A DNA stretch of 64,000 nt, taken from positions 1-64,000 of IMG/VR virus record IMGVR_UViG_3300041964_000099; one strand, written 5' to 3'. This stretch comes from a virus. The notes beneath the pieces are model-generated. The model was not told where the DNA came from and did no database searches. It saw only the letters and a list, made by a program, of their open reading frames with translations. A program made the translations under genes and the position numbers. Positions 2,306-57,514 of the stretch are shown here, one piece after another (the stretch's first letter is position 1; each line of letters starts with the position of its first letter).

Positions 2306-3281
2306 GTTTCAAAGCCTGAACTGCCTCATGCTTCTTGTCTTCCTGCCGCTGGTCATACTTTGCCGTCGTTGCCGGATCGGAGTGCCCGACCAGGCGCTGC
2401 ACAAGAATGATATCGACCCCGGCCTTAAGTAAGTATGTGATAAAAGTTCGGCGAAAGTCATGCGGTGAACAGTCTGGAATGCCAGCTTGTTGCACCCGCT
2501 TTTTGAGCATCACAAGCACCGCTTGAGACTGAAGCGGATTAGGAGAATAGATTAAATTGTCTCCCCGGTTAATCGGGCAGAACAATGGCCCCGGTCTATC
2601 ACCCCGGCGATCGAGCCAGCGCTGTACAGGTGGGATAGCATAGGTCGGCAGGTAAGTAATGCGCGACTTGCGCCCTTTACCATTTAGCACTTTGACGCTG
2701 CCAGTGGTGAGATCAACTTCTTCGCGCATCAGATTCACGACTTCCGATCGCCGCAGGCCCGCGCACAAAATGCCGAGCATTCCAGCATCGCGATCGCCCG
2801 CTGCGGTGGCTTCAGCCTCGCAAACTGCAAACAATTTGCCCAGCTCCGCTTCAGTCAGGGCACGGCCAGACTGAAACTCTTCGGCTTTGATGTCAGCAAT
2901 GTTTGCCGCGCGATGGAAAGTTTCTGTCTCCATCTGCCCCAGCTCCCAGGCTGCACGCAGCGTCTTGCGCAACGCGCAGAGCATTCGATTTGCAGTCTTC
3001 GGAGCATAAAGCGTCATCAGCACCGATCGCAGCGCGACCGTGTGCTGATAGCGCAGTTGTGCCCAGTCGAAGGAGACTGCATCATGCTGCCCGCTCGTGA
3101 GTAGCCCTGCCATCTTATTGAGAGCGCCCAGCATGGTCGGGCGCGAAGATGCCCCTAACTGTGCCAAATAAAGCAGTGCAGGCCGCTCATCTGAAGGGCG
3201 CGGGGAGACCCAGCCCAGCTCGCCAGAGGGAGAGTGAACAAGGGTAGCTGGGATAGGTAGAGGAGCGACACGAGCAGTCAT
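2295..3281 (-). CDS. tyrosine recombinase (XerC/integrase family)
   Basis: AGLRRSE (R), GKGRK (K), HDFRRTF (HxxR), LVGH, TTAKY (Y); probable start MTARV at 3281 (ORF track extends to 3344). Confidence 0.93.
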   Translation of the reverse strand: MTARVAPLPIPATLVHSPSGELGWVSPRPSDERPALLYLAQLGASSRPTMLGALNKMAGLLTSGQHDAVSFDWAQLRYQHTVALRSVLMTLYAPKTANRMLCALRKTLRAAWELGQMETETFHRAANIADIKAEEFQSGRALTEAELGKLFAVCEAEATAAGDRDAGMLGILCAGLRRSEVVNLMREEVDLTTGSVKVLNGKGRKSRITYLPTYAIPPVQRWLDRRGDRPGPLFCPINRGDNLIYSPNPLQSQAVLVMLKKRVQQAGIPDCSPHDFRRTFITYLLKAGVDIILVQRLVGHSDPATTAKYDQRQEDKKHEAVQALKLGI

Positions 3282-3321
3282 GAGAAGTGAAAGTGAGAAG
3301 TTAAACCTAGTGTTCCCAGCG

Positions 3322-3669
3322 TCAGAGACTGCCCTGAACGACATGATCGCGCAGCTCTAAACCCAAGAAGCCGCGAGAAATGTAAGGGGTGTCTTTCCCA
3401 ACCAAAATTTTGAGTTTGAGATCGGGTCGGTTGAGTTTGGCGATCGCATCGTCTCGCCAGTTCTCCATCACTGAAACCATCTCCTCGCTGTGCATCACCA
3501 GCAGCACTGAGGAACCACGGCTCGCTGTTGCGATCGCATCCACGAGCATTGCAGTGGTGCGGCCTGAGCGCCGGGGATATTCAGGATTGACCCGTGCTTT
3601 CTCTTGAAAAAATTCGATCGGTTGCAGGCTGAGCTGCTTGAGAATTTCATCTTGGTTCAGGCTAGTCAT
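3322..3669 (-). CDS. hypothetical protein with a P-loop-like segment
   Basis: RRSGRTTAML resembles a degenerate Walker A; co-oriented with the recombinase operon. Confidence 0.55.
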   Translation of the reverse strand: MTSLNQDEILKQLSLQPIEFFQEKARVNPEYPRRSGRTTAMLVDAIATASRGSSVLLVMHSEEMVSVMENWRDDAIAKLNRPDLKLKILVGKDTPYISRGFLGLELRDHVVQGSL

Positions 3670-24362: not shown

Positions 24363-24404
24363 CACTCGATCGCCCGTAATGTCTTGCGGGCGATTTTTCA
24401 TGTC
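24363..24404 (+). repeat. CGATCGCCCG hairpin repeat, copy 3
   Basis: Identical to copy 2 apart from one fewer T. Confidence 0.85.
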
Positions 24405-24428
24405 CAAAACACCTATAGAAGGCTTGAT

Positions 24429-25580
24429 ATGACTGAAGAAACCCGATCGCTGGAGGAAAAGCGCGAAGCCATTCGCAAATTTGGTCTGACCATCACCCAA
24501 ACCAAAACCCAGCCGACTCGTGCAAGCAAAAAGCCTCGCGACGTTTGGGAAATCGATGGCGTCAACAAGCGCAAATATGAATACATCTTGCGCGACCAAC
24601 TGGGCTTAAAAATGTGGCGCGGCAAATTCACAGCATGGTCAGACCCAACCGATGCACTGCTGGCAGCGCTGGAAGAAGGTGAAGCGCTGACTGTAGCAGA
24701 GATTCAGGAATATGCTGCCGATCGATCGCTGACCAGGGCGCAACGGTTCAGCCAGCGCAGCAGCAAAGCAGTACAGGAGCGCAACCGCCGCCGTCAAGCC
24801 TCCAGTCAAATTGCTGAACAATTCTATGGTGGTCAGCCGATTCTAGTCGGGCATCACTCCGAACGTCGGGCGCGACGCGCTCAGGCTCGAATGTGGAACC
24901 ACATGACAAAAAGCGTCGCGGCTGACAAAAAAGCAAAAGCGCTTGACAGACGTGCAGCAGGCGCAGAGAGCCGCGCCGAAATGAAAACTGACTACACGCT
25001 CGAATATGCAGGCAACCGGCTCAAAGAGGCCAAAGCCGAATTTAATACGGCTGTGCGCAACGTTACGGTTCAGCGTCTCAACTATGTCTGGTATCGCGGC
25101 GATAATGCCGACTTCAAAGACCAGCAGGCTGAGGTGCTGGAGGTCTCCAAAGATCGCAAAACTGTCAACCTCTGCTTCGAGCAGAAGAATGCGGATGGAG
25201 AGACTGACTGGCCGACACTGATGGATGTGCCAATGAAACAGGTAGAGCTAGTGGCAAGCGAAGCCTACCTGCACGACCAGGCGCTACGCCGCAAGAATGC
25301 AGAAGAAGCGATCGCCCACTGGACAGCCGAAGTCGTGCGGCTGGGAGGCGATCGCTACAGCAAAGACACCATTAAGGTCGGTGATTTTGTTTGTTCGGGG
25401 TGTGGGCTGAGCGAAGTGGTGCGCGTCAATGCGAAGTCAGTCACGGTCAAAACTGAATATTCCTGGACGGAACCCGTGCCCTATCACAAAATCAAGCAGC
25501 ATTTTACAGCCGCTCAAGTGAAAGAAGCGCAGGCAAAGAAAGCCGCCAAAGCCGCAGCAAAAGCCGCTGCCGCAGAGTAA
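24429..25580 (+). CDS. DUF3560 domain-containing protein
   Basis: GGQPILVGHHSERRARR..RM...M.KSV signature; probable ATG 24429. Confidence 0.8.
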   Translation: MTEETRSLEEKREAIRKFGLTITQTKTQPTRASKKPRDVWEIDGVNKRKYEYILRDQLGLKMWRGKFTAWSDPTDALLAALEEGEALTVAEIQEYAADRSLTRAQRFSQRSSKAVQERNRRRQASSQIAEQFYGGQPILVGHHSERRARRAQARMWNHMTKSVAADKKAKALDRRAAGAESRAEMKTDYTLEYAGNRLKEAKAEFNTAVRNVTVQRLNYVWYRGDNADFKDQQAEVLEVSKDRKTVNLCFEQKNADGETDWPTLMDVPMKQVELVASEAYLHDQALRRKNAEEAIAHWTAEVVRLGGDRYSKDTIKVGDFVCSGCGLSEVVRVNAKSVTVKTEYSWTEPVPYHKIKQHFTAAQVKEAQAKKAAKAAAKAAAAE

Positions 25581-28779: not shown

Positions 28780-30246
28780 ATGTTCTGGGAATACGAGCTA
28801 TATCCAACAAATTACCCAATCATCCACCAAATGATTAGGGAGCTGAAAGTGTCTGTGCATAATCGCCGCCGCATTTGCGACCCATCGGCAGGCGATGGAC
28901 GTATTTTAAGCGTCCTGAACAAAACGCACGGCATTTCTAAACGATCGCTATTTGCCTGCGAAATTCAAGATGACCTCGTGACCTTGCTGCAAAGCAAGGG
29001 TTATAAAGTGCTGGAACGTGATTTCCTCCAGTACAACGAGCCGATTCAGTTTGATTTAATTCTGGCAAATCCGCCATTCAGCATGGGTGTGCGTCACGCT
29101 CTGAAGATGTGGAACTGCTTAGAACCTGATGGCGAGATGGTGATTTTGCTCAATTGGCTGTCAATCAGCTTTTTAGAAGAAATCACAGAGAAGACAATCA
29201 ATACCTATCAAGAGCATCTAGGCAATCTGATTAAACAGCATGGCCGATTTAAGCGGCTGGGCCAATGCTTCCGCCAGTCAGAACGTCCTACTGACGTTGA
29301 AGTAGTGATGATCTATCTGCGAAAGCCCAAAGCTAAGCACACCGGCCCCGACTTTGATGGGATCAACGTCACTGAGGATGAAGCAGCAGCAGTAGATGCT
29401 GCATTTACAGAGAATGCGCTAGCCTCAGCCGACATGATCAAATCGATCGTGGCCCAATATCAGTATGCAGTCGAAGGTCTGAAGCTTCGGGCTAAAGGTC
29501 AGACAATGCTTGACTTCTCCAGACGTGGCCTACCTCGCAGAATTGAAGGGGCAACAACGACAGAAGAAGACAACTCATTAATCCAGCGAGTTCCGTTCGA
29601 TCGCCAGGTGTTTGCCCTCAAAGCAGAATTTTGGGCCTTAATCTTTGAGAAAACCTCGGTTGGAAAGCGAGCAACCAGCGACTTTAGGAAGAAGGTTGAA
29701 ACGTATGCCCTAGAAAATGCAAGCATGTCCTTCTCAGAGGACAACATTCGCATCGTCTTGGGCGTGTTCATGTCCAAAATTGGGAGATACATGCAAGATG
29801 CGATCGTTCGCATTTTTGATCAAGCAACGGCTTATCACAAAAACAATACAGTTCACTATCAAGGCTGGGTGACAAATAAGGCTTGGAAAATTAATGACCG
29901 CATCATTATCCCTGACGGCGTGATTTTCAATAATTTCATTAGCGACTTTAGCGCTCACACCACAGTTCTAGACTTTCTCAGGGACTTCGATCGCTGCCTC
30001 TGCTGGATTTCCAATACCGACATCACAGATCCAAGCTTTTTTAGTGGCGCTGAAGCCTTATCCGATAAATGCTACCAAGCAAACAAGGGTGAGGATTACA
30101 AGCCAGAATTTTTCAGCACATTCTTTCGGCTGAAGATGCACAAAACAGGAACGTTGCACATTGATGTGCAAGACCCGCTGCTGCTTGCAGAATTCAACCG
30201 CTGTGCGGCAGAAGGCAAGAACTGGATTGGTGGCAAAGGTTTTTAA
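28780..30246 (+). CDS. N6-adenine DNA methyltransferase with DUF4942-like C-terminus
   Basis: ICDPSAGDG (motif I), FDLILANPPF (motif IV), C-terminal F..K.HKTGTLHI. Confidence 0.85.
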   Translation: MFWEYELYPTNYPIIHQMIRELKVSVHNRRRICDPSAGDGRILSVLNKTHGISKRSLFACEIQDDLVTLLQSKGYKVLERDFLQYNEPIQFDLILANPPFSMGVRHALKMWNCLEPDGEMVILLNWLSISFLEEITEKTINTYQEHLGNLIKQHGRFKRLGQCFRQSERPTDVEVVMIYLRKPKAKHTGPDFDGINVTEDEAAAVDAAFTENALASADMIKSIVAQYQYAVEGLKLRAKGQTMLDFSRRGLPRRIEGATTTEEDNSLIQRVPFDRQVFALKAEFWALIFEKTSVGKRATSDFRKKVETYALENASMSFSEDNIRIVLGVFMSKIGRYMQDAIVRIFDQATAYHKNNTVHYQGWVTNKAWKINDRIIIPDGVIFNNFISDFSAHTTVLDFLRDFDRCLCWISNTDITDPSFFSGAEALSDKCYQANKGEDYKPEFFSTFFRLKMHKTGTLHIDVQDPLLLAEFNRCAAEGKNWIGGKGF

Positions 30247-41666: not shown

Positions 41667-42725
41667 ATGCAATCGTCACAACTACGACTCAATCTCTTCT
41701 CAGCTTCCTGGGAGGAGTTTTTTTTAGATGCGATCGATTTATCCTCCTACGATCGCATCGTTATTTTTCTCTCCGGCGGTAAAGACTCAGTTTGCTGCTT
41801 GCTGATTGTCAGATATCTATTAGAGAAGCAAGGACTGCAAGACAAAATTGAAGTCGAAGCATGGCATCACTGCGTAGATGGGCGCGAAGAAGGCTTAAAT
41901 CTGATGGATTGGGCCTATACAGAGTCCTACTGCCAGAAGCTCTGTGATGCCTTCAATATCAAGCTCTACTTCTCGTGGCTTGAAGGAGGCATGGCGCGAG
42001 AACTGGTCAGGGAAAACCAAGCCAAATCGCGCACCTGGTTTGAAACGCCAGACGGTCTTATGTGTGCCGGTGGTAACTCAAAAGACCTGACTACTCGCCT
42101 GAATTTTCCGCAAACCAGCAATGATCTTAATGTGCGCTGGTGTAGCCCTTACTTAAAAATTGATGTAGGCCGCATCGCTGTTCGCAATCAAAAACGGTTC
42201 AAAGGCAGCCGGACGCTGCTAGTTTCAGGCGAGCGAGCAGAAGAAAGCCCAAAACGAGCCAAGTATTTGCAAATTGAGCCGGATGAAACGCATTGTGCCA
42301 GCCGCTATGTCGATCGCTGGCGACCCGTGCATCACATCGACCAGGTGATAGTTTGGCAGATTATTCAATATTTTGGCGTCAATCCAGCGCCGTCGTATCT
42401 GCTGGGTTTTGGCCGCAAAAGCTGCCGCAACTGCATTTTCAACGGAGATGACGAATGGGCCACGCTGCGGCAAATTGACCCAGAAGGCTTTGCCCGCATT
42501 CTCGCGTTCGAGTTGCTATTCCAAAAAACCATCTTCAACAGCAAGTTGCCGTTTGAGGAGCGCACGATCGAGGCCCGCGCCAATCGCGGCACACCGTTCC
42601 CAAACATGCAGCCCGACGACATTCGCGCTGCCCTCAGCTCCACATTCGATCGTCCAATCCTGCTACCTCCTGACAAATGGAAGTTGCCCGCAGGCGCGTT
42701 TGGCCGTAACTGTGGCCCCACTTAA
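41667..42725 (+). CDS. phosphoadenosine phosphosulfate (PAPS) reductase family protein
   Basis: PP-loop FLSGGKDS, RWCSPYLK, GERAEESPKR, WRPV, SCRNCIF. Confidence 0.85.
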   Translation: MQSSQLRLNLFSASWEEFFLDAIDLSSYDRIVIFLSGGKDSVCCLLIVRYLLEKQGLQDKIEVEAWHHCVDGREEGLNLMDWAYTESYCQKLCDAFNIKLYFSWLEGGMARELVRENQAKSRTWFETPDGLMCAGGNSKDLTTRLNFPQTSNDLNVRWCSPYLKIDVGRIAVRNQKRFKGSRTLLVSGERAEESPKRAKYLQIEPDETHCASRYVDRWRPVHHIDQVIVWQIIQYFGVNPAPSYLLGFGRKSCRNCIFNGDDEWATLRQIDPEGFARILAFELLFQKTIFNSKLPFEERTIEARANRGTPFPNMQPDDIRAALSSTFDRPILLPPDKWKLPAGAFGRNCGPT

Positions 42726-45071: not shown

Positions 45072-46196
45072 ATGGCAACAACACGACGAACAAAACGCGC
45101 GACTCGCGAAGAATTGCCAGATGAGCTGGCAAACAGCTTTTACGAGTTTGAATGCGTCCAGTTTCTCCAGTCAAAGCACAATGCTTGGGTTGCTACTATT
45201 CCCGCTAGACAAATTCACAGCTTATTTGCTCTGCGCGAGGCTCGCGCTAGTAATCCGCTGGAATGGTGGCAACGTGGTATCAATTTCAGTCGAGTCAAGA
45301 AACTGGTTAAGTATGTGATCGATGCGATGCTGTCTAACCGCCAGAAACGTTACATTCTGCCTTGTGTCACAGTCGCCATCAATGGCGATGTGGACTTTGA
45401 AGAGTATTTTCAAGATCGCAACGATCGGCACAGCGGCATTCTAAAAGTTCAATATGGCGCAGTGTTTTGCTGCGTTGATGGACAGCATAGGCTGTGCGGG
45501 CTGGGAGATTCCTTTAGCGCTCAGCCTGACCTGATGCAGTGTGAATCAATTGCCGTGATGTTTTTTGTTGACTTGGGAGGGCACTTCAAGGAACAAGCTT
45601 TTCTCGATATCAACACAAATGCTGTCCGGCCCAGTCCGTCAATTTTTGCATTATTCAACCACAATGACCCGATCGCAGAAGCGGCGCGGCAGGTGGCGAC
45701 GACAATTCACGCTTTCAAATTAGTGACCGACATGGAAAACACGAACATCCGGCCACGCGACACTTTGAACATTTTCACCCTCAATGCAATCAACGCCGCT
45801 TGCAAGGAATTGTGGAAAGGCATTGAGCTTGAAGAAAATGTTGATCTAGTGGCCGAGACCTTACAATTTTGGTCGATCGTAGAAAAGCACATGGGTGCAT
45901 GGAAAATCATCAGAAGTCTTAACGTCAACAAGTCATTATTTCTATCTGACTACATTGCCTGCAATGCCTTGACTTTGATGGCATTGGGAATGCTGGGCAA
46001 TGTGCTGCGAAAGGAAGGAACCGATTGGGAGTCGGTTCTTCCGCGCCTCGCAACTGTTGACTGGGGGCGGCACAACCCTGAATGGAGAGATCTATTTATC
46101 TTCAACGGCAATCTGGTTAAAACTCAGCAAACATGCCGTGCCTTCGCGACCTGGCTCTACGGCCACGTCAAGACCAGCGATAAACCCGCTGAATAA
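45072..46196 (+). CDS. dndB: DGQHR-domain DNA sulfur modification protein DndB homolog
   Basis: RGINFSRVKKL..Y, YILP, VDGQHR, QAFLDINTNAVRPSPSI..LFNHND. Confidence 0.85.
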   Translation: MATTRRTKRATREELPDELANSFYEFECVQFLQSKHNAWVATIPARQIHSLFALREARASNPLEWWQRGINFSRVKKLVKYVIDAMLSNRQKRYILPCVTVAINGDVDFEEYFQDRNDRHSGILKVQYGAVFCCVDGQHRLCGLGDSFSAQPDLMQCESIAVMFFVDLGGHFKEQAFLDINTNAVRPSPSIFALFNHNDPIAEAARQVATTIHAFKLVTDMENTNIRPRDTLNIFTLNAINAACKELWKGIELEENVDLVAETLQFWSIVEKHMGAWKIIRSLNVNKSLFLSDYIACNALTLMALGMLGNVLRKEGTDWESVLPRLATVDWGRHNPEWRDLFIFNGNLVKTQQTCRAFATWLYGHVKTSDKPAE

Positions 46197-48254: not shown

Positions 48255-49055
48255 TTAGCCGACGATCGAGGCTGGATTTACATCTTCAATTGCAATGTTT
48301 TTTGCAACCTCAAAAAGATTGCCAAACGCATCGGTCACACGACGATATTGATTCACAAACCTGCGATAGTTTGTGTGGTTGATATCAGCCAGAAAACGCG
48401 CTTCAACAATGCTGTCTGGATTATCTGGCTCTAAGGTATCAAGCAGCCGCAGCAAATCCGGCAATTCAGCAGGGCGCACATAGTCTTCCCGCCGAAAGGT
48501 TACAGCCTCCACAAGGTTTCGCCTTGGCGTCATGATTCGTGAGCTTTCAGTCATGGCGACTTGCTTTTGGTTGGAAACTCGTACCAGTCCTTGCCGCCAC
48601 TCTGGATGCTCTAAGAACTCTCCCAATACGTGATAAATAGGCAAAGATATGTACAGTTTGCCGAGCTGCAATCCTGGAACAGCTAAAATTTCGCTTGGAA
48701 ACGAATTGGTTTGCATAAGTCTCCTCTCAAATTGAATGTCTTGATAGTTCTTTATGTCGATCGTAATAGGTCTGCCGCATTGCGGCCATGCAAAGCGTAG
48801 CTGACTTACAGACCGGCCTGAAGCAATCATCTGCTGGGCAAAAAAATGATTGTGTTGATGCAGCAAGCGAGCATCAGTACGATCGCGGCAGTGAAAAGTA
48901 ATACTTTCCACGTTTGAAGTGGCTTCAGCGCAAAACAGCCTTGTAGCCAGGTCAGTTTCTCCCAGCTTCATCAAAACTGCAACACACTCCGCCTTAAATA
49001 GCTGGCCGTGATGTAGCGTTAAATCGCGTGGATACTCAAATTTCAACTGCTTCAT
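48255..49055 (-). CDS. hypothetical protein co-transcribed with the XRE regulator
   Basis: 266 aa; overlaps the XRE stop; C-terminal half may be PAS-like (unverified). Confidence 0.7.
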   Translation of the reverse strand: MKQLKFEYPRDLTLHHGQLFKAECVAVLMKLGETDLATRLFCAEATSNVESITFHCRDRTDARLLHQHNHFFAQQMIASGRSVSQLRFAWPQCGRPITIDIKNYQDIQFERRLMQTNSFPSEILAVPGLQLGKLYISLPIYHVLGEFLEHPEWRQGLVRVSNQKQVAMTESSRIMTPRRNLVEAVTFRREDYVRPAELPDLLRLLDTLEPDNPDSIVEARFLADINHTNYRRFVNQYRRVTDAFGNLFEVAKNIAIEDVNPASIVG

Positions 49056-49720
49056 ACTCGCTTCCCTTCTCTTCTACTTGATCCGTTTTTGCGCTTTCCA
49101 GCGCTCATCAGCTCAGCTACTGACCACTCCTGCCCACCTGGTTTGGTCAGAATTCTCGCCAAACATTCAGCCTGATGCAACGTAATTGACGCTCCGCCAA
49201 GCAAGCTATCAATTACGGCTGGCTCTAGCAGCACGTCCTCTGCAAACGCTTCGATCCGCTGCCTACCAGCAAGGTGACTCCAGGCGCGATCGGGCTTTGC
49301 CATCTCACCCACAATTAACTGGGCAATCGTCAGCTTTGACGAATCGATCTGCATTTGATCGATCAGCAGTTGCACCAGCTCAAATTTTTCTTCTTCTGAA
49401 AGAGTGGAAGCCCATGCCGCAACTCGCGACACGGTTAAAACTTCCCCCTGCGGCGACGCTCCGAAATTTTCCAGCAAAACTGCAAGTGTAATGTCGCCGT
49501 GCAAATAGAGTTCAATCTGGGCCACAGTTGTGCCCAAATAATCTGCCAGCTTGATGCGAGCGCCGCGCATTCGATCGCCTCTGGCCCAGCGTCGCAAAGT
49601 GTCGCGAGAAATTCCAATCAGCTTGGCAGCTTCCGCCTCACTGCGATTTCCGCGCAGACGTTTGATTAAATCAACTTGATTTTTGCGACGGGGATCGGCA
49701 GATGAATTCATGTCTTTCAT
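49052..49720 (-). CDS. XRE-family HTH transcriptional regulator
   Basis: LIKRLRGNRSEAEAAKLIGISRDTLRRWARG...KLADYLG. Confidence 0.85.
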   Translation of the reverse strand: MKDMNSSADPRRKNQVDLIKRLRGNRSEAEAAKLIGISRDTLRRWARGDRMRGARIKLADYLGTTVAQIELYLHGDITLAVLLENFGASPQGEVLTVSRVAAWASTLSEEEKFELVQLLIDQMQIDSSKLTIAQLIVGEMAKPDRAWSHLAGRQRIEAFAEDVLLEPAVIDSLLGGASITLHQAECLARILTKPGGQEWSVAELMSAGKRKNGSSRREGKRV

Positions 49721-49729
49721 TAAAGCAAC

Positions 49730-49821
49730 ATCGGCAGAAAATCTACACCCCTGGCCTGAAATTAATCGCTTGAAGTTGAGCTGTCAATCAAACAAGTCAA
49801 CCAATCGGCAGAAAATCTACA
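49730..49821 (+). promoter_or_regulatory. 18-bp direct repeat, operator-like
   Basis: ATCGGCAGAAAATCTACA at 49730-49747 and 49804-49821; partial ATCGGCAGA at 49694. Confidence 0.7.
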
Positions 49822-49839
49822 TATCCTGTCGAAAACCTG

Positions 49840-49869
49840 TTGACTTTGCCAGAAGCGCGTGCCTATACT
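49840..49869 (+). promoter_or_regulatory. sigma70-type promoter for the rightward operon
   Basis: TTGACT, 18-nt spacer, TATACT. Confidence 0.6.
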
Positions 49870-49905
49870 GACCTCAACCAGTCGAAATCCGTCAAACCCG
49901 TACCA

Positions 49906-49945
49906 CAGACAGGTTCAGACAGGTTCAGACAGGTTCAGACAAGTT
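49906..49945 (+). repeat. 10-bp tandem repeat x4 (CAGACAGGTT)
   Basis: Three exact copies plus CAGACAAGTT, non-coding. Confidence 0.9.
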
Positions 49946-49957
49946 GTTTAAGCTGCT

Positions 49958-50260
49958 GTGATGAAGACGATCGATGTGACTGCCGGTGCAACTTCTGTCC
50001 TGCCTCAAAGCTGGGCAGAAGTTGCACAACAATACAACGTCCACCCCAAAGCAATCGAGCGCGATCGCGCTGCACTCGGTCGCCACAACGACCCGATTAA
50101 TAGAGATTTACTGAAGGAAATTGGCCTGATGCGGCGCTGGCTAGCGTTAGGCAATGGAGGCCGGAGCCGATTTAATCGCCCAAATTTTATTGATTTGAAA
50201 AATAAGGGATTACTTGAAGCCCAACTACAGGCAGCAGAAGCCTGTCAAGCCAGCAAGTAA
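49958..50260 (+). CDS. small HTH-like DNA-binding protein
   Basis: SWAEVAQQYNVHPKAIERDR resembles an HTH. Confidence 0.6.
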   Translation: MMKTIDVTAGATSVLPQSWAEVAQQYNVHPKAIERDRAALGRHNDPINRDLLKEIGLMRRWLALGNGGRSRFNRPNFIDLKNKGLLEAQLQAAEACQASK

Positions 50261-50277
50261 TTTCAAGCTGTCCGATC

Positions 50278-50919
50278 ATGTCTGAAGGCGTCCTTCAGAC
50301 AGCTTCACCCCAGTTCACCCTAGTTCACAAGGAGTTTGATGAAATGATCACATCCTTACAAACCAGCGCTCAAAATGCTTGCGACTACCGTGAGCGTCTT
50401 GAAATGTTGACAACGGCGATCGAAGAAGACGGTCTATGGGACAACGCAGGCAAGCCAATTCGTTCCGAAGAAATTCGGGCGATCGCTCAAGTAGCCACGG
50501 ACATTACATCTGAGCTGACAAAATACTGCCCTGTGGAAGGCTGGATACCACTTGAGCCAGAAGAATTGAAAAGCCACATGATGAATGCCGCCCAAGAAGT
50601 TTTAGACGGTTATCGCTATTTCAACGGTCGATTACCAGACAGTCATGAGTCTCAAGTCCAAGAGCGAGTTTATTTTCTGCTTGGAAAGGTTAAGCCGCTT
50701 CATGTCCGACTGGCAGATTGGCTCAGCCGCATCAACCCCGCTGTTCTAAAAACACTGGCTGTACTTGTTTTGGCTGTTTTATGTCTCGCGCTTTTTCATC
50801 CTACTGGTCAACCCAGCCCTAGCAGCTTCTCCTCTCAAGTTCAACACCTTGGCAAAAACGCATTGAAAAAATTCTGCGTTACGCCAAATGATGTGCCCTT
50901 GAGCTTTGAACTGGACTAA
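50278..50919 (+). CDS. protein with a C-terminal transmembrane helix
   Basis: LKTLAVLVLAVLCLALFH; 213 aa. Confidence 0.7.
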   Translation: MSEGVLQTASPQFTLVHKEFDEMITSLQTSAQNACDYRERLEMLTTAIEEDGLWDNAGKPIRSEEIRAIAQVATDITSELTKYCPVEGWIPLEPEELKSHMMNAAQEVLDGYRYFNGRLPDSHESQVQERVYFLLGKVKPLHVRLADWLSRINPAVLKTLAVLVLAVLCLALFHPTGQPSPSSFSSQVQHLGKNALKKFCVTPNDVPLSFELD

Positions 50920-50989
50920 ACCAGTCTGAAGCTGTCCAAATCCTCTGATGTCACCCACTTCACTTCGTTCCACTATCTACCGTTAAGTC

Positions 50990-51655
50990 ATGACAGGTTT
51001 TCAAACATTTTCAGCTCAACAAATCTACGCTGCACATCGCATCCTCGCCAAGGATGTCGAAGCGATCGCCGAATACCTGGGATTTGCCGAATCTCGGTTT
51101 AGCAATCTGCAAGTAGAGCAAATTATCAAATTTGTAAAGGAGGCAAAGCAACACGGCAAAACGATCAACCAGTTCATCGCGAGTCTGAAGTCTGCACAGG
51201 CAGAACAGGCAGAACAGCCACAACAAGAAGTGACGCCGGACTTTGGCGGCGACCAGCCAGCCGTAAGCACTGAGTCAGCCCTTGCAAAAGTTCATTTGCA
51301 ATCGAGACAGGATGCACTGCTCGCAGGAGTTGGCGCACAGCTTCAGGAATTCAAAGATTTTGGCAAAGGCAAGCAACTGGTCGTAGAGCTGCTGAATGGC
51401 GATCGCGTTCCTGCCAGCGAATTAGAGCAAGCCATTCTCGATAATGCAAAAGCTTCACTGGCAGCAGCAGCTAAGGGTTTTAACTCTTTTTTGTCGCGCG
51501 ACGGGGGGAAGCTGCAATTTATGACAGCGGATACCCAGCCGCTGACGCTGACAGATGCGATTCAGGCGCACCTCGATCGAAACAACCTCAAGTTGGCAGC
51601 TCTACCAGCAGACCAAACAGTAGATGTCCAAAGCCTGCCCGCAGCAGCCCTATAA
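50990..51655 (+). CDS. hypothetical protein, possible N-terminal HTH
   Basis: DVEAIAEYLGF...QVEQI; 221 aa. Confidence 0.7.
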   Translation: MTGFQTFSAQQIYAAHRILAKDVEAIAEYLGFAESRFSNLQVEQIIKFVKEAKQHGKTINQFIASLKSAQAEQAEQPQQEVTPDFGGDQPAVSTESALAKVHLQSRQDALLAGVGAQLQEFKDFGKGKQLVVELLNGDRVPASELEQAILDNAKASLAAAAKGFNSFLSRDGGKLQFMTADTQPLTLTDAIQAHLDRNNLKLAALPADQTVDVQSLPAAAL

Positions 51656-51672
51656 GCAGAGAGACCGCCCCG

Positions 51673-52374
51673 ATGAAACCCAACTGGATAGGTTCTCTTC
51701 CCCCCTCAGTTTCACGCCCGTTGTGTGGCGTGGTTTTGGCCGTGGCCTGCATCGGTGGCGGCCTGGAACTTGCAAAGCAAGCCTTTGGGCTTGACGTTCC
51801 GCCGTTGAAGCAGACGGCAGTTCCAATTGCTGCAACCGGCCTGTTTGTAGGCATTTGGTTTTCGACCGAGAAAAATCCTTCAGAAGAATTCGTTTCTTCT
51901 GAAGAAGCTGCGGCTGCTCCACCCTCCCCAACCGGCTCGCCGGATGAAAATACTCGTGCGATCGATCTGTACGTGGGATGGGCCAACACGCTGCCAGAGG
52001 ATCGAGCCGTTCAAGCGATCGATCGACTGGCTCAAGTTGCTGCAATGCGTGAGGAAATTAAAAAGCAGCCGTTGCCGCAACAGACACGCCTGTATGGGGA
52101 AATGCCCTGGCAGACGGTCGATCGATTTGTCGTGCCACAGCAAGCCGAACTGCCACCGGCTTCAGCCCCAGCAATCACTTCCCCTGTACGTGAGGAAAAA
52201 ATCAATGAACCTGTTAATCGAAGTTCAGCAGCAGCGCCCACAAGTCCTCAGTCCTTCCGGCTCGAAGAACCTTGCGGCGCGGCCTCAAATGGTTCAACTC
52301 CAGCCTCAAGCGCACAAAAGTTTGAAGCCGTCTTCAACTCAGATACTTGGGCTGATGAGTCGATACCCGTCTAA
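51673..52374 (+). CDS. membrane protein with Pro/Ser-rich tail
   Basis: Hydrophobic GVVLAVACIGGGL and IAATGLFVGIWF. Confidence 0.65.
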   Translation: MKPNWIGSLPPSVSRPLCGVVLAVACIGGGLELAKQAFGLDVPPLKQTAVPIAATGLFVGIWFSTEKNPSEEFVSSEEAAAAPPSPTGSPDENTRAIDLYVGWANTLPEDRAVQAIDRLAQVAAMREEIKKQPLPQQTRLYGEMPWQTVDRFVVPQQAELPPASAPAITSPVREEKINEPVNRSSAAAPTSPQSFRLEEPCGAASNGSTPASSAQKFEAVFNSDTWADESIPV

Positions 52375-52504
52375 GCGATCATTCCACCGCTGGGGGTTTC
52401 GCATTGGAGCGCTGGCGATCGCCTTGTGTGCGATCATCCTGCCCAGCTTGAGCGGAACTCATGCAATGGCCGCTGAGCCAAATTCAACAAAACTCGTCAG
52501 TTGA
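52355..52504 (+). CDS. small signal-peptide/membrane peptide (49 aa)
   Basis: MSRYPSKRSFHRWGFRIGALAIALCAIILPSLSGTHAMAAEPNSTKLVS; basic N-terminus, hydrophobic core, AMA motif. Confidence 0.5.
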   Translation: MSRYPSKRSFHRWGFRIGALAIALCAIILPSLSGTHAMAAEPNSTKLVS

Positions 52505-52517
52505 GATCGAGGTAGGG

Positions 52518-53207
52518 ATGCAAATTGAACTAAGAAATGTAGGGAGCATTGTTTTCAACACGGGCGCAGAAAATCAAACTGTCTGGCCTGAAATGAGAGC
52601 GCAATTAGAGCCAGCGCCCTCACCATTGCCATCCCTACCCGCTGCATCTCAAAAGCAAATTGCTGCTTCAGACACATCGCCGCCATCAGCGGCGATCGTT
52701 CCCGCTCCTGCCGGGAAAATCGTTCAACCGCTGCCAACGCCGATTCCAACTCGGCCAGTCGTGCCGATGCAGCCGCCAACGCCACCACCGAGCGTTTTGG
52801 CGTTCCGCGCTGCCAAGCAGCGGCAGCAGATGCAAACTTTTTTGCCGCCACCACCGGCAAGTTTGCAGTTGCCGCCACCGCCCGCAAGCTTGGAGCAGTT
52901 GCAATTAGAACCAGAAAATGTAGAGGAAGAAAATAGCAATTCTTTCTGGTTTGGATTTCTGGATTCTTTTATTGACATTTCACTCATAGTTTTAACCATC
53001 TTGCTAGCTGGCGTAATGGCAATGCGATGGTATGAGGAAAGATCCCAGCCTGAATCGCAAACTCCGGCTCCAACTTCAACGCCACGACCCCAACGCCGAC
53101 CCCAACGCCGACGCCCAACGCCGACCCCAACTTCAACGCCAACCCCTGCGGCTGGCTCTCAGCCTGTTCCAGTTCCAGCAATCCCAATTCCGCAAGGAAG
53201 ACAATGA
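52518..53207 (+). CDS. proline-rich single-pass membrane protein
   Basis: PPPP tracts; ISLIVLTILLAGVMAM; probable ATG 52518. Confidence 0.7.
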   Translation: MQIELRNVGSIVFNTGAENQTVWPEMRAQLEPAPSPLPSLPAASQKQIAASDTSPPSAAIVPAPAGKIVQPLPTPIPTRPVVPMQPPTPPPSVLAFRAAKQRQQMQTFLPPPPASLQLPPPPASLEQLQLEPENVEEENSNSFWFGFLDSFIDISLIVLTILLAGVMAMRWYEERSQPESQTPAPTSTPRPQRRPQRRRPTPTPTSTPTPAAGSQPVPVPAIPIPQGRQ

Positions 53208-53680
53208 CCATCAATCCACCTGATGAATGGCGAGAGTGGACAAACACAGTGCATGTCTACAATGAGCCTGTCCCAGAAGAATCGCCAAATCCGCAGCAGA
53301 ACCCTGAAAATAACGCGAAGCCCATTGCGATCGCGATTACTACCTTTCAGTGGCGAGCGATTTTTATGGAAACGTTTTTCTATGCCACAACAGCTTTTGT
53401 CGCGTTCTGGGTGATAGAGAAATTTCTAGGTTTCCTGCTGACTGCTGCCATTGTCTTGATGTCCGTGGCGCTGGCCGCCGCGTTCCTAGTGTATTGCCAT
53501 CGCAGCGGGCCGCTGATTGTGCGAGCCGTGCGGCTTAGCCAGCTTTCTCAGACAGTGAACCTGCGCAGAGACTGGGATGAGTCTATCCATCTCCTGTACC
53601 AGGTCGCCGCGCAATTCGTTTTCCTGTGCGAATTGGCGATCGCCCTGGCAATTGCCTTAAGTTTGACAATTTTGTTGTGA
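53204..53680 (+). CDS. multi-pass membrane protein
   Basis: Three to four hydrophobic segments; ATGA coupling. Confidence 0.7.
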   Translation: MTINPPDEWREWTNTVHVYNEPVPEESPNPQQNPENNAKPIAIAITTFQWRAIFMETFFYATTAFVAFWVIEKFLGFLLTAAIVLMSVALAAAFLVYCHRSGPLIVRAVRLSQLSQTVNLRRDWDESIHLLYQVAAQFVFLCELAIALAIALSLTILL

Positions 53681-53686
53681 AGTGAA

Positions 53687-55240
53687 ATGCTGGCCCGATC
53701 GCTAAATGCAAGTGAGCAAAGATGGCTGTATGAAGCTGTTCAATATGCTTTGGCAACAAAGCAGACGCCAAAAAACTTTGAAGCGCTGTTAGTTGACAGC
53801 TTTCCAGAAGAGTTGCTGCCACAAGCCAAAGCGCTTTCAGTTCAGCATTATCAACACATTGTTAGCACTCAGCCGCAGTTAGTTGCTAATCCAGAGACTC
53901 CATATGAACCCCCCCTAGAAAATCAGCCGCCTGCACATAGCGCTTCTGATTCTGAACCTGTTTATGAACCAGTCTATGAGCCGCAGACTGAAGAAAGTTA
54001 TCAGCAGTACACCACAACTACAACGACAGCGCCCGCAGATGCAGCAGAACCCGATCCGCGTCCCTACTCAGAACCATTCCCGTTAGACCGCAATCCGACG
54101 CGAGAGGAACTTGAGGCAAAGGGGCAAGAACTGCTGTGGATTTGTCGCCGCCGTCGCGCTTCTTGTCTGCCGGTGAACCTTCTCAACAGCGCTCGGTTCT
54201 ATGAATTTCAGATTGTGCCAGACATAGAACAAAACGTTGCCGTTGACGCAGTTATGAAGCTGCAACAAGATTTTATTGTTCATGCTGGCCTTCCCCAATC
54301 GACCTTGCTAGAGCGGCAGTCTGGCTCAATCGGGATTCAAGTGCCAAAAGTGGAATGGGAGCCGCTGCGCTTCCTCAATCACTTTACGCCCAAAGTTATG
54401 CCGCCACAGCCAGAGCTGCCCCTCACGGCCTACATTGGCTTGGATAAAAGGCTGGAATGGATTAAGCAAAGAATTTTAGGAGTGGCGCTAGGTGGTGCGT
54501 TTGAAAGCGGCAAAAGCTGCTGGATCAAGCAAGTTGTTTTGTCGCTGATGGCAAGTCGCAACCCCAATGATTTCAAGGTCATCTTCGTTGATGTCAAGCC
54601 TGAAGGCTATGACATCTTCGATCGATCGCCCTGGTCGCTGGGATGCGACGATTTCTTGTCAACTGAGAGCAACAAATTAGATTGCTTGAGAGCAAAATGC
54701 TCAATTAAAGACCCAGGAGATTTTTACACTTTTCTGCAACTGGCCCTAATAGAAGGGGCTGAACGACAAACGTTGTTTCGCGCACACGGAACAAACAACC
54801 TCTTGGATTTCAACCAGGTGCAGCCGAACATGGCGCTGCCACAGATCCTCGTGATTGTTGATGAAACAGGAATGACGCTCGGCTCACCTGGCAGTAGTTG
54901 GCGCAAAAAAATTGGCCCGCTCTCGATCCAAGCTGTCAAAGCGCTGCGATCGTCAGGGTTCTGCTGGGTTTTTGGTGATCAGCGTCCGGCCAATCGGGTC
55001 ATCCCCGAAGACGTTGACACCAACCTGACGCTGCGAATTGGTTTTCAGGTTGGGGATAAAAATGACAGCGAAATTGTTTTAGGCCGGGGCTACCCCCAAG
55101 CCATGTATTTGCGAGGGCATGGTGATGGCTTTTGTCGCAGTGGCGGGGAATTGCAGCGCTTTCAATCTGCGCTAGTCAAGGACTCTGACATCCTCTCATT
55201 CCTGAGATGGAGCACTCAAAAATATCGAAATTTAGGCTAA
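53687..55240 (+). CDS. FtsK/SpoIIIE-family ATPase
   Basis: Walker A GAFESGKS, FVDVK, Walker B ILVIVDE, GDQRP, RIGFQV..S..VLG, LRGHGDG. Confidence 0.9.
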   Translation: MLARSLNASEQRWLYEAVQYALATKQTPKNFEALLVDSFPEELLPQAKALSVQHYQHIVSTQPQLVANPETPYEPPLENQPPAHSASDSEPVYEPVYEPQTEESYQQYTTTTTTAPADAAEPDPRPYSEPFPLDRNPTREELEAKGQELLWICRRRRASCLPVNLLNSARFYEFQIVPDIEQNVAVDAVMKLQQDFIVHAGLPQSTLLERQSGSIGIQVPKVEWEPLRFLNHFTPKVMPPQPELPLTAYIGLDKRLEWIKQRILGVALGGAFESGKSCWIKQVVLSLMASRNPNDFKVIFVDVKPEGYDIFDRSPWSLGCDDFLSTESNKLDCLRAKCSIKDPGDFYTFLQLALIEGAERQTLFRAHGTNNLLDFNQVQPNMALPQILVIVDETGMTLGSPGSSWRKKIGPLSIQAVKALRSSGFCWVFGDQRPANRVIPEDVDTNLTLRIGFQVGDKNDSEIVLGRGYPQAMYLRGHGDGFCRSGGELQRFQSALVKDSDILSFLRWSTQKYRNLG

Positions 55241-56181
55241 TGAACAAAGTATCGCGACGAAGATTTCTGCGTATTGGTGGCGCTTCAGTAATCGGGCTAA
55301 CAGCCTTCACTGAAGCTGAAACTTTGCAGCCGCAGGAAGAATCAATCAGCAGTTCTGTGCCGCTCGACGCGCACGAGCAATCGCTATTAGTCCCTCTAAA
55401 TCAACCTGTTGCTTCGCCTGCTGCGGCCAGGTCGCCCGCTGCCCCTGCGCCTGCGCCGCGATCGCCCACGACGCCACCCCCACCCCCACCAGGCAGTGAA
55501 TTTCGGCGACAAGGGAGGCGCGTTGTGCCTGTGGTCGATAACGATCGACCACAGGCGCGATCCTATACTCCGGCCAAAGGCATGACGCCAGAGATTGAAA
55601 GTCGGGTTTGGGCCGCCTTCCAGCGGGTAATTATGTTCGCCGAAGGAACCTGGTATCGGGGCAGCCCGCATAACGGTTACTTAATCATGTACACAGGCAA
55701 AAATATCAGAGATATCCTGCCGAACTTTCAATATGAAAAGCATCCCTATTTCCTAGTGCCAGCAAATCGCCGCAGCTCTGTAATACCCTGTGGCCTGATT
55801 AAAGGCAGGCGTGTGTGTAGCTGGGCCAGCGGTATTGGGCAGTTTATGCCCGATACGTGGACGGAGTTTTGGCACAAATATCCCAAAGTTTGGTTTCAGT
55901 CGATTCCAGAATTTGGAGCGCAAAATCAAGACCGCATGATCCAAATCCTCGCCGGAGAGTGCGGCGCGTATTGGGCGCTGATGCGCGGCGTGGCGATCGC
56001 TGCTGGCAAAGCAGAGGTGAACCGCGATAATTTGCGCACAGCCATTGTCAAGGCCAGTCCAACTTGGGCTGGTTTGCCAAATTGGTTAGACGAAAGTGCC
56101 CTTGATCAGAATGCTAAGCCGATGGCGGAGCTGGAGAGACTGTTTTATCGTGAACTCAATGATTTACAGCGAGCAGTTTGA
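55240..56181 (+). CDS. lambda-R-type lytic transglycosylase/muramidase with a twin-arginine signal
   Basis: MNKVSRRRFL; AFQRVIMFAEGT..GY, HP, ASGIGQF..TW, QD, WAGLP mirror lambda lysozyme blocks; TAATG coupling to FtsK. Confidence 0.75.
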   Translation: MNKVSRRRFLRIGGASVIGLTAFTEAETLQPQEESISSSVPLDAHEQSLLVPLNQPVASPAAARSPAAPAPAPRSPTTPPPPPPGSEFRRQGRRVVPVVDNDRPQARSYTPAKGMTPEIESRVWAAFQRVIMFAEGTWYRGSPHNGYLIMYTGKNIRDILPNFQYEKHPYFLVPANRRSSVIPCGLIKGRRVCSWASGIGQFMPDTWTEFWHKYPKVWFQSIPEFGAQNQDRMIQILAGECGAYWALMRGVAIAAGKAEVNRDNLRTAIVKASPTWAGLPNWLDESALDQNAKPMAELERLFYRELNDLQRAV

Positions 56182-56678
56182 TGTCTAGAGGCGTTGATGC
56201 GTTTTGGTATAACGCTAGAACAGTTGCACTAATCAGCGCCGCCTTTGCGACGATGGGCGCGACGATCGCGTTGACCTACCTGAGCTGGTGGCTTGCCCTT
56301 TCGACCGTCTTGTGGCTGTGGCTGGTTTGGGCGATCGGTGTTGGCTGCGGTTTGATGCTTGCAATTCGGCTGCATCATCTTCGCTCTAGAGCCTCACCAG
56401 CCTCGATCGCGCAACCTAAGCTGGTAACAGACGCTCAGCCAGTCCAAAGGGTCTCTGACTCGCTTCCGACCCCACCCAGGCACGTTTTACGCTCAGCGAT
56501 CGCAGAGCTGACTGAAAAAGCAATCAGCCTCGAAGGGTTCTGCGTCTATTGCCAAGCGTCGGCTCAAGACTTGCTCGATCGCCCCTACGATCCGAGCCTA
56601 CACGCTGAAGACTGCCCGATCCCAATCGCGCACAAGCTAGTGCAACTGGAGGCCCAAGCCACCCATAAACAAAACTAA
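56178..56678 (+). CDS. membrane protein with C-terminal CxxC...H..C motif
   Basis: Two hydrophobic helices; FCVYC...LHAEDCP. Confidence 0.65.
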   Translation: MMSRGVDAFWYNARTVALISAAFATMGATIALTYLSWWLALSTVLWLWLVWAIGVGCGLMLAIRLHHLRSRASPASIAQPKLVTDAQPVQRVSDSLPTPPRHVLRSAIAELTEKAISLEGFCVYCQASAQDLLDRPYDPSLHAEDCPIPIAHKLVQLEAQATHKQN

Positions 56679-56741
56679 GTGATTGATATTTGTTAGAAAG
56701 TATGTAAACCTTTGATCGATCCCGATTCCAGGATTCAGGCC

Positions 56742-56954
56742 ATGATTACTGCCTCCTCCCTCTTAGATCCTCCGCCCATCGAAGCTGACAACATCAGTGA
56801 TAACGAAAATAGCGAAACCAATGTTTCACTATCCGTCGATGTGCCACCAAATGTACGCACGCGAATTCGGATTCAAGCAGCTCTTAAAAATGAGCCAATA
56901 AGAAACGTTGTCATTCGATATTTAGAGCAAGGACTTTCAGCCGACGAAGGCTAG
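56742..56954 (+). CDS. ribbon-helix-helix (CopG/ParG-like) protein
   Basis: SLSVDVPPNVRTRIRIQAALKNEPIRNVVIRYLEQGL. Confidence 0.7.
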   Translation: MITASSLLDPPPIEADNISDNENSETNVSLSVDVPPNVRTRIRIQAALKNEPIRNVVIRYLEQGLSADEG

Positions 56955-57156: not shown

Positions 57157-57417
57157 ATGACTAACACCTTAGCCGATCCAAACGGAATCGAGCAAGGAAC
57201 GCAGCTACGCAAAATGGCTGAATTCCTTGCTGTACATAGAAAAAAAAATTTTTTCTATCGCAAAAACCTTCAAAGACCCTTGACACCGTATGTAGGTAGT
57301 CAGGGCTTGAAGGTTTCTTTTTTTAAGAATTCCTTTCGAGTGCTGCTGATACATTACGGCGTCAAGTGTTCTTCAGGAACATTATTGCAGCAAACGGCGT
57401 GCATTCGCGGGCCATAG
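57157..57417 (+). CDS. hypothetical protein
   Basis: 86-aa ORF; weak support. Confidence 0.3.
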   Translation: MTNTLADPNGIEQGTQLRKMAEFLAVHRKKNFFYRKNLQRPLTPYVGSQGLKVSFFKNSFRVLLIHYGVKCSSGTLLQQTACIRGP

Positions 57418-57514
57418 GACAGTAAAAGGCCACCGTTGTCATCACACAACGGTGGCCTTCGCTTTTCTTGTCTCAAGTCATTCAGTATCCAGTCATCACA
57501 GAAGGAGAACCAGC

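Follow-up and report, generated by a model that had tools for sequence, protein, structure and literature searches.

An FtsK-type motor gene coupled to a GH104 wall-hydrolase gene in a putative cyanophage: a possible variant of a proposed DNA-translocation module of cyanobacterial mobile elements

Within a 64,000-nucleotide stretch of viral DNA (positions 1 to 64,000 of IMG/VR record IMGVR_UViG_3300041964_000099; "the window" refers below to this whole stretch), we found an operon at 49958-56678 in which the gene for a motor of the FtsK type overlaps that for a peptidoglycan-degrading enzyme. The window is the first half of a 121,302-bp record with a CheckV completeness of 98%. We read the operon, tentatively and with somewhat less than even confidence, as a phage-borne variant of an FtsK-driven module with which cyanobacterial mobile elements would translocate DNA through the envelope. 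By analogy, it may work like the Streptomyces TraB/Spd system, functionally the nearest one described, without being a member of that family. The evidence centers on two adjoining open reading frames (ORFs):

ORF7, 53687..55240, plus strand: soluble FtsK-type motor of 517 amino acids (evidence from PHROG, PDB, AlphaFold and Foldseek)
ORF8, 55240..56181, plus strand: twin-arginine translocation (Tat) signal, Pro-rich linker and a GH104 lambda-R-type lytic transglycosylase domain with a Cys...Cys insert

The pairing of these two genes recurs on plasmids of Nostocales. A tblastn search of plasmids with ORF7 listed Calothrix plasmids, and on plasmid1 of Calothrix NIES-4105 an FtsK/SpoIIIE gene (722 amino acids, no membrane helix) is the last in a row of tightly coupled genes that encode, besides small proteins spanning the membrane once or twice, an M23 peptidase anchored in the membrane and, directly 5' of the motor, a membrane-anchored protein of 320 amino acids. 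This last protein is matched by ORF8 and itself matches annotated GH104 proteins at 1e-17. Plasmid-borne homologues of it were found in Nostoc PCC 7120 (pCC7120beta), Trichormus, Nostoc C052, Aulosira, Brasilonema, Scytonema, Tolypothrix and Microchaete. All four plasmids that we inspected (pCC7120beta and those of Calothrix NIES-4105, Nostoc C052 and Brasilonema) carried the same module of soluble FtsK, GH104 lysozyme, M23 peptidase and about eight small membrane proteins (L091:6268-19370 for pCC7120beta; L092:7438-18217, L093:6094-18487 and L089:18656-29400 for the other three), and none of the four had a match to PF03135 (VirB4). Profile comparison with hhalign related the ORF7 family to the plasmid FtsK at 99.9%, and ORF8 to the plasmid GH104 family at 95.3% (E 2e-8). 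An FtsK motor adjoining a Cys-pair GH104 lysozyme is therefore a feature of both the phage operon and the Nostocales module; in both, the motor is soluble, the lysozyme is membrane-tethered or exported, the operon is tight and rich in small membrane proteins, and VirB4 is unmatched. As far as sequence comparison goes, the recurrence of the pair favours an envelope-spanning machine over a chance neighbourhood.

The two arrangements also differ. On the plasmids the gene order is reversed, with the lysozyme 5' of the motor; the motor is longer (725 amino acids), with another N-terminus and a 140-residue C-terminal extension; and the M23 peptidase and about eight conserved small proteins are added, none of which is matched by ORF1-6 or ORF9. 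On sequence grounds, the phage operon is a distinct lineage, with a soluble true-FtsK motor that has a private N-terminal domain, a GH104 enzyme bearing a Tat signal instead of M23 peptidase plus lysozyme, and accessory proteins that have no relatives. There may be a third linked pair: an ORF8-like protein (P0007) and an ORF7-like protein (P0010) are each recorded on two contigs, the longest of 28,408 bp, and may lie on the same contig, although this link is indirect. A further parallel was seen in the Cylindrospermopsis phage CrV-01T (MH636380; L005:5001-9440), where FtsK gp053 (672 amino acids, no membrane helix) is preceded by a Cro/C1-type gene and six small ORFs, three of them with membrane helices. 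This layout is similar to that of the operon, and the sequence similarity is in the motor alone.

In its predicted structure, ORF7 is an FtsK alpha-beta motor. In the AlphaFold model, built from 68 sequences (pLDDT 87.3), the alpha-beta motor (residues 126-517) is preceded by a three-helix N-terminal domain (8-67) and a disordered linker rich in Pro (70-125). The QRP motif (DQRP) is intact, as are Walker A (GAFESGKS) and Walker B (VDE). The Pfam FtsK_SpoIIIE score (23.3) fell just below the cut-off of 24, and PHROG 1358 was matched at 1.8e-26. Sequence searches of the PDB returned FtsK (3.8e-11), TcpA (6e-6) and EccC/EssC/YukB (9e-4), and Foldseek gave the same order, with FtsK on double-stranded DNA (6t8b) at E 1.1e-23 and a TM score of 0.77-0.78, TcpA at E 1e-17 and TM 0.6, and EccC/EssC/YukB at E 6e-13 and weaker. 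Because the fold is close to that of FtsK on double-stranded DNA, DNA is the likeliest substrate of ORF7. We found no membrane helix in ORF7 (no hydrophobic window reached threshold), and the four-helix N-terminal membrane domain by which FtsK is targeted to the septum is thus absent. There is also no gamma winged helix, the domain for reading KOPS/SRS sequences and for XerD activation: the alignment to FtsK stops at residue 502 of 517, the last element of the model is the beta-domain helix (499-514), and the chain ends right after the beta domain, which leaves no gamma domain. Near relatives among 1.8 billion representative proteins numbered only three, P0008 (38% identical), P0010 and P0012; all share the N-terminal domain of ORF7 and have no membrane helices.

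The structural ranking bears on whether the operon might move something other than DNA, as a type VII-like exporter of protein or another polymer, or serve as a defence or exclusion device, which we consider very improbable. The best NCBIfam match of ORF7 was the EccCa ATPase domain (6.5e-13), PADLOC returned the C-terminal FtsK-like domain of SspH (2e-14), and a DndB-like gene lies 4 kb 5' of the operon. However, the EccCa and SspH matches span the generic ATPase core only and are far under the family cut-offs, and on this ground we rejected assignment to a type VII secretion system or a defence system. Furthermore, Foldseek places FtsK on double-stranded DNA far above EccC/EssC, the FtsK alpha domain is present, ORF7 has one ATPase domain as against two or three in EssC/EccC, and family scans found no WXG100-like protein, other type VII component or Ssp partner.

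ORF8 most likely starts at the ATG at 55240, which overlaps the ORF7 stop; an alternative ATG lies at 55207. Its N-terminus is MNKVSRRRFLRIGG..., and its signal reads SRRRFLRIGGASVIGLTAF and contains SRRRFLRIGG, which fits the Tat motif S/T-R-R-x-F-L-K ahead of a hydrophobic core. From this motif ORF8 is predicted to be exported by the Tat route; in its one homologue, P0007, a plain signal anchor takes the place of the twin-arginine signal. ORF8 matched the phrog_90 endolysin family at 4e-12. When it was aligned with annotated GH104 enzymes and endolysins, all of the family blocks (E-G-T with the catalytic Glu, HP, S.A.G..Q, QD and WA.LP) were present. The top PDB matches of a two-sequence profile were lambda lysozyme (3d3d/1am7), with E-G-T and WA.LP aligned, at a weak E of 0.16, and an AlphaFold model from the same two-sequence depth was unusable (pLDDT 43). 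The lambda R lysozyme, itself of family GH104, shares all five of these blocks, but it lacks a signal peptide, a linker and the Cys pair and needs a holin, whereas ORF8 has a twin-arginine signal and a Pro-rich linker. The Cys...Cys insert is common to ORF8, P0007 and the Nostocales plasmid lysozymes and is missing from the GH104 enzymes of proteobacterial phages.

ORF7 and ORF8 belong to a row of nine co-directional plus-strand ORFs, separated by intergenic gaps of -44 to +70 nt, with the following features around them:

Divergent regulator, 49052..49720, minus strand: XRE/Cro-C1-type helix-turn-helix (HTH) protein of 222 amino acids (Pfam HTH_3 at 2.1e-5, and other HTH families)
Regulatory intergenic region, 49730..49938, plus strand: repeats and a promoter-like site
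ORF1, 49958..50260, plus strand: small basic soluble protein of 100 amino acids, no family match
ORF2, 50278..50919, plus strand: 213 amino acids, acidic N-terminal domain and one C-terminal membrane helix (residues 155-173), no family match
ORF3, 50990..51655, plus strand: soluble acidic protein of 221 amino acids with a possible MerR-like N-terminus (weak structure neighbours)
ORF4, 51673..52374, plus strand: 233 amino acids, N-terminal segment that is hydrophobic or lipoprotein-like, then an acidic Pro-rich region (11.6% Pro)
ORF4b, 52355..52504, plus strand: signal-peptide-like product of 49 amino acids (basic n-region, hydrophobic core, T-H-A motif)
ORF5, 52461..53207, plus strand: 248 amino acids, 19% Pro, one membrane helix (residues 170-188) and a basic Pro/Arg tail
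ORF6, 53204..53680, plus strand: 158 amino acids, three membrane helices
ORF9, 56181..56678, plus strand: about 165 amino acids, two membrane helices and a C-terminal CxxC...H...C...H domain
Two small open reading frames 3' of ORF9, 56712-56954 and 57157-57417, plus strand
Terminator-like hairpin, 57426-57459, plus strand: strong hairpin with a 14-bp stem

The genes are closely coupled. ORF5 and ORF6 overlap by 4 nt, ORF6 ends 6 nt before ORF7, the ORF7 stop and the likely ORF8 start share TAATG (55238-55242), and ORF8 and ORF9 share TGATG (56179-56183); the stop/start overlaps of ORF5-ORF6, ORF7-ORF8 and ORF8-ORF9 point to co-production. Strong hydrophobic helices occur in five of the nine operon ORFs (ORF2, 4, 5, 6 and 9), compared with 16 of 138 ORFs in the rest of the genome (Fisher p = 0.003), and ORF4, ORF5 and ORF8 are Pro-rich. 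The sequence-only reading had described a tightly coupled operon of HTH-like proteins, membrane or Pro-rich proteins, an FtsK/SpoIIIE ATPase with intact Walker motifs and no obvious gamma domain, a lytic transglycosylase with a Tat signal and a membrane protein with a zinc motif, and much of this description was borne out, including the Cys/His-bearing tail that follows the two helices of ORF9. What did not hold up was the HTH-like label of ORF1 and ORF3, for which Pfam, PHROG and NCBIfam gave no support; the structure neighbours of ORF3 in the ESM Atlas are mostly of the MerR type at TM <=0.56, which is a lead only, and its nearest feature clusters are cyanobacterial hypothetical proteins (score 0.86).

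The small proteins provided few further leads. ORF6 had zero relatives among 5.8 billion proteins, and with its three helices it is a candidate membrane anchor for the ORF7 motor. ORF5, for which family and profile searches found no homology, looks by composition like an envelope-spanning rod in the style of TonB or VirB10. ORF4b lies in the third frame and overlaps both the 3' end of ORF4 and the 5' end of ORF5; it may encode a small membrane peptide or else the ORF5 signal peptide, split off by a +1 frameshift (real or an assembly error). ORF9 had no relatives and no meaningful fold neighbour in the Atlas; it may act as a holin-like protein or a scaffold.

Upstream of ORF1, two exact 18-bp direct repeats, ATCGGCAGAAAATCTACA, lie at 49730-49747 and 49804-49821, at a distance of 74 bp, on either side of the point where the divergent regulator region starts; no other copy occurs in the 121 kb, even at 3 mismatches. 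They are followed by a promoter-like site, TTGACT-18-TATACT (49840-49869), and, between this site and ORF1, by three tandem 10-bp repeats, ACAGGTTCAG (49909-49938). The 18-bp and 10-bp repeats are candidate operators or a candidate loading site. Given its HTH matches and its position divergent from the operon promoter, the XRE-type gene is a candidate repressor of the operon, and the transcription unit probably runs from the promoter-like site to the hairpin at 57426-57459. The argument that motor and hydrolase serve jointly in an envelope-spanning assembly draws on four of these observations: the pair recurs on non-lytic plasmids, the genes overlap, the operon is enriched in membrane and Pro-rich proteins, and it lies beside regulator and maintenance genes.

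We compared the operon with the described systems that combine such components. Like the Streptomyces TraB/Spd systems (pSVH1, pIJ101; PMC4447253), it has a single FtsK-like motor and neither a type IV secretion system nor a relaxase, an adjoining gene of repressor type, a set of small, rapidly evolving membrane genes whose stops and starts overlap, and a host that may be multicellular. The XRE regulator, the repeat-rich promoter region and the operon together recall the Streptomyces traR-traB-spd layout (PMC4447253), and the layout also fits the description of spd genes as 3-7 small membrane genes that have overlapping stops and starts and cannot be aligned between plasmids (PMC4447253). As this description is not based on sequence, it cannot establish membership. 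In contrast, sequence kinship does not extend past the FtsK superfamily, the Streptomyces systems have no dedicated lysozyme, and the element here is a tailed phage. TraB carries a membrane segment and a C-terminal winged HTH that binds 8-bp clt direct repeats; ORF7 lacks both, on which ground TraB/Spd membership was rejected, and nothing ties the three 10-bp repeats 5' of ORF1 to ORF7.

The Tcp system of pCW3 (TcpA/TcpG) and Tn916 (Orf21/Orf14), both of type MPF_FA, likewise pair an FtsK-like ATPase that has no gamma domain with a wall hydrolase, and TcpA is the second-best structural match of ORF7. However, those systems need a VirB4-like ATPase (TcpF/Orf16), VirB6/VirB8-like proteins and a relaxase, none of which we found here, TcpA is membrane-anchored, and their hydrolases come from other families. 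In the 121 kb we found no match to VirB4 (PF03135) or VirD4 (PF02534), nor to the two relaxase families searched (PF03432 and PF08751), in agreement with the sequence-only reading, which had recognised no VirB4, VirD4 or relaxase. The lack of a VirB4-like ATPase and of a relaxase of the two families searched excludes the Tcp/Tn916 type; a membrane-anchored coupling protein of the TcpA type is also missing, and the hydrolase family is another one. Of the suggestion that the operon is a TraB/Spd-like or Tcp-like system, membership in either family thus fell away, while the idea of an envelope-spanning machine gained from the FtsK/Cys-pair GH104 pair on non-lytic Nostocales plasmids.

The element that carries the operon is, judging from its gene content, a temperate tailed phage of a cyanobacterium with plasmid-like maintenance genes. 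Both a small and a large terminase are encoded in the second half of the record, the large one (TerL) being about 40% identical to its counterparts in Burkholderia, Acinetobacter and Bordetella phages, and the head and tail genes there are those for a DUF2213 head-maturation protease, a major head protein, a neck protein and tail fibres; a tyrosine integrase is encoded at 2295-3344 of the window, a ParA-like gene lies at contig 66894-67691, and the record also holds a sigma factor gene. The terminase, head and tail genes together with the integrase and the ParA-like gene mark a temperate tailed phage with plasmid-like maintenance genes rather than a plasmid, and the 120 HIP1 octamers in the record (about 1 per kb) are a cyanobacterial signature. 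The operon lies 5' of the ParA-like gene and at least 12 kb from the late block. No close relatives of TerL, ORF7, ORF8, P0007 or P0008 were found in IMG/VR, GTDB genomes or JGI metagenomes, and the operon had no megablast match on plasmids.

A number of findings weigh against the proposal that the operon translocates DNA. ORF7 is 21% identical to the Nostocales plasmid FtsK and is not specifically close to it, and it has neither a DNA-recognition domain nor a membrane segment. Apart from ORF7 and ORF8, the operon proteins had no match to the families of the plasmid module (hhalign <=16%) or to known families, and the M23 peptidase of that module (PF01551) has no counterpart in the phage genome. 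In an IMG/VR profile search, 80 phage loci had distant FtsK-like genes; the motors of 64 of the 80 were soluble, neighbours coding for membrane proteins or hydrolases were mostly lacking, and the other operon proteins had no homologue at any of the loci. Phages can therefore put motors of this kind to other uses. Our literature search turned up no description of these cyanobacterial modules as a transfer system, transfer by any of them has yet to be observed, and DNA transfer or spread across septa is something that we purely infer. The sequence-only reading had set its transfer system against a phage structural and packaging context. The element did prove to be a tailed phage, which counts against transfer, although the operon products are neither structural nor packaging proteins. 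Finally, ORF8 is the only wall hydrolase that we found in a phage that is 98% complete, GH104 is a classic endolysin family, and a published cyanophage operon with an FtsK gene includes lytic proteins.

The last two points lead to the main rival, a lysis cassette, which the sequence-only reading had left out of account and which we regard as a serious possibility but a somewhat unlikely one. Here ORF8 would be a GH104 endolysin exported by Tat or by signal-anchor release, a holin-, antiholin- or spanin-like role would fall to ORF9 and perhaps to ORF4 and ORF5, and the FtsK gene would be an unrelated accessory upstream. ORF8 is the sole phrog_90 match in the genome, and Amidase_2, Phage_lysozyme, SLT, M23, M15 and NlpC/P60 are all unmatched in the 121 kb. 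In addition, the GH104 enzymes of proteobacterial phage-plasmids adjoin holins (for example H91 and H99), ORF9 with its two membrane helices is pinholin-like, and the Pro-rich envelope proteins are spanin-like. The closest precedent is the Planktothrix phage PaV-LD, in which the row ORF129L-ORF122L (L098:14776-19661) encodes membrane proteins, an FtsK/SpoIIIE protein, small proteins, the holin ORF124, the membrane-anchored M23 endopeptidase ORF123 and an endolysin, with ORF122-124 (endolysin, endopeptidase and holin) three genes from the FtsK/SpoIIIE gene. ORF123 and ORF124 were bacteriolytic when expressed in E. coli and Synechocystis (PMC9096620), and it is because a hydrolase and a holin near an FtsK gene are lytic that we take a lysis role seriously. 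The PaV-LD row resembles ours as a cyanophage operon that combines an FtsK-superfamily ATPase, small membrane proteins and wall hydrolases, but its ATPase carries a pair of membrane helices, M23 and GH108-like hydrolases take the place of GH104, and its proteins gave no phmmer match to the operon. The M23 protein ORF123L is homologous to that of the Nostocales plasmid module (1e-35), which links the published lysis cassette to the plasmid module.

Several features speak against lysis as the function of the phage operon. The adjacency of FtsK and GH104 is also conserved on plasmids for which there would be no point in lysing the host, and a one-base stop/start overlap couples ORF8 to the motor. 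The operon adjoins a repressor-type gene and plasmid-maintenance genes, away from the late block; at the end of the tail-fibre block, where lysis genes usually lie, there is a membrane ORF of 93 amino acids. PHROG and other family scans matched no holin or spanin family, and an active endolysin that Tat exports constitutively would be a hazard unless additional control were in place. The lysis and transfer readings are compatible, since one exported hydrolase could serve both. The 93-residue ORF itself (contig 68809-69090; L001:4809-5090, minus strand) has one strong and one weak hydrophobic segment at the usual place of a holin, and no endolysin gene adjoins it. Two ORFs at the end of the tail-fibre block (191 and 474 amino acids) were considered as second endolysin candidates and rejected, having no PDB relatives.

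The plasmid modules also shed light on the origin of the phage motor. The motor of the pCC7120beta module is All7666, which was used as the 'putative FtsK' in divisome interaction tests in Anabaena (PMC7766704, PMC9426583), and according to a review, Anabaena is the only cyanobacterium in which an FtsK homologue has so far been identified (PMC7766704). As this only FtsK is the plasmid-borne All7666, the phage gene is unlikely to be a picked-up housekeeping copy of the host. The All7666 module looks, from its gene content, like an undescribed FtsK-driven envelope machine and not like a housekeeping division gene; for Anabaena cell biology this means that the 'putative FtsK' of the divisome belongs to a mobile-element module.

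The same data bear on the proposal that an episomal prophage uses the motor as a pump for segregation or septum clearing, or to direct DNA into particular cell types, with the hydrolase and membrane proteins docking it at the closing septum. We think this rather improbable. Since cyanobacteria mostly have no FtsK, large low-copy elements would bring their own motor so that their DNA is not trapped or lost when the cell divides, and genes for a ParA-like protein, an integrase and a sigma factor are present in the phage. Bacillus gamma-like phages provide a precedent, as they pair an FtsK/SpoIIIE protein with a sigma factor, and a role in segregation or in directing DNA into the spore has been discussed for them (PMC4113786, PMC8597652). 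All7666 took part in the divisome tests, a review cites a ZipN-FtsK interaction in Anabaena (PMC7766704, PMC9426583), and CrV-01T, whose host is filamentous, also has a soluble FtsK after small membrane proteins. Conversely, with no gamma domain there would be no KOPS-like guidance or Xer activation, such a pump needs neither an exported wall hydrolase nor periplasm-spanning Pro-rich proteins, and none of these genes has been tied experimentally to segregation.

Returning to the translocation reading, what the computation establishes is the folds, the motifs, the coupling of the genes and the recurrence of the motor-hydrolase pair; the formation of a complex, its substrate, and the direction and site of transport are what we infer from them. 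The mechanism that we propose is as follows. ORF7 would form a hexameric pump for double-stranded DNA, held at the cytoplasmic membrane by partner proteins and not by helices of its own; candidate anchors are the three-helix ORF6 and the tails of ORF2, ORF5 and ORF9, which might contact the three-helix N-terminal domain of ORF7. ORF8 would leave the cell by the Tat route, stay near the membrane on its Pro-rich linker and open the peptidoglycan locally, and the Pro-rich ORF4 and ORF5 could bridge the periplasm. The assembled machine would pass the DNA of the element across a septum or the envelope independently of virions, and ORF8 may double as a lysis enzyme late in infection. A more specific version, in which the phage genome, once one cell is infected, spreads as double-stranded DNA and free of virions to neighbours in the filament through septa opened by the Tat-exported lysozyme and driven by the FtsK motor, with a machine that Nostocales plasmids carry too, seems to us unlikely.

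To our knowledge, transfer of double-stranded DNA by an FtsK-like protein alone is established only for mycelial actinomycetes. If the translocation reading is correct, plasmids and phages of filamentous cyanobacteria would carry a second, independently assembled machine of FtsK and wall hydrolase, and such machines would point to a general route for DNA between the connected cells of multicellular bacteria. It would also explain how large Nostocales plasmids that have no VirB4 match might move, and it would raise the possibility that a tailed phage spreads without virions. If lysis is instead the function, ORF8 would count among the rare endolysins that take the Tat route, and FtsK genes would mark lysis regions in cyanophages.

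A few further observations concern the rest of the record. The ParA-like ATPase gene is followed by an ORF of 122 amino acids (contig 66894-68046) and lies 64 kb from the tyrosine integrase; the phage may persist as a plasmid prophage that uses the recombinase for integration or for resolving dimers. In a long plus-strand block 5' of the operon (window 24384-25580, 28780-30246, 41667-42725 and 45072-46196) we found DUF3560, DUF4942 with a methyltransferase, a full DndB domain (1.3e-69), several further DNA methyltransferases and a gene resembling PAPS reductase. As a set, these genes are reminiscent of the anti-restriction regions of conjugative plasmids. Within or adjoining the head-gene region, two long ORFs encode a protein of 848 amino acids with a HipA-like or PI3-PI4-kinase domain (L003:16465-19011) and one of 1470 amino acids with lipase-like motifs and a DnaJ domain (L003:3540-7952).

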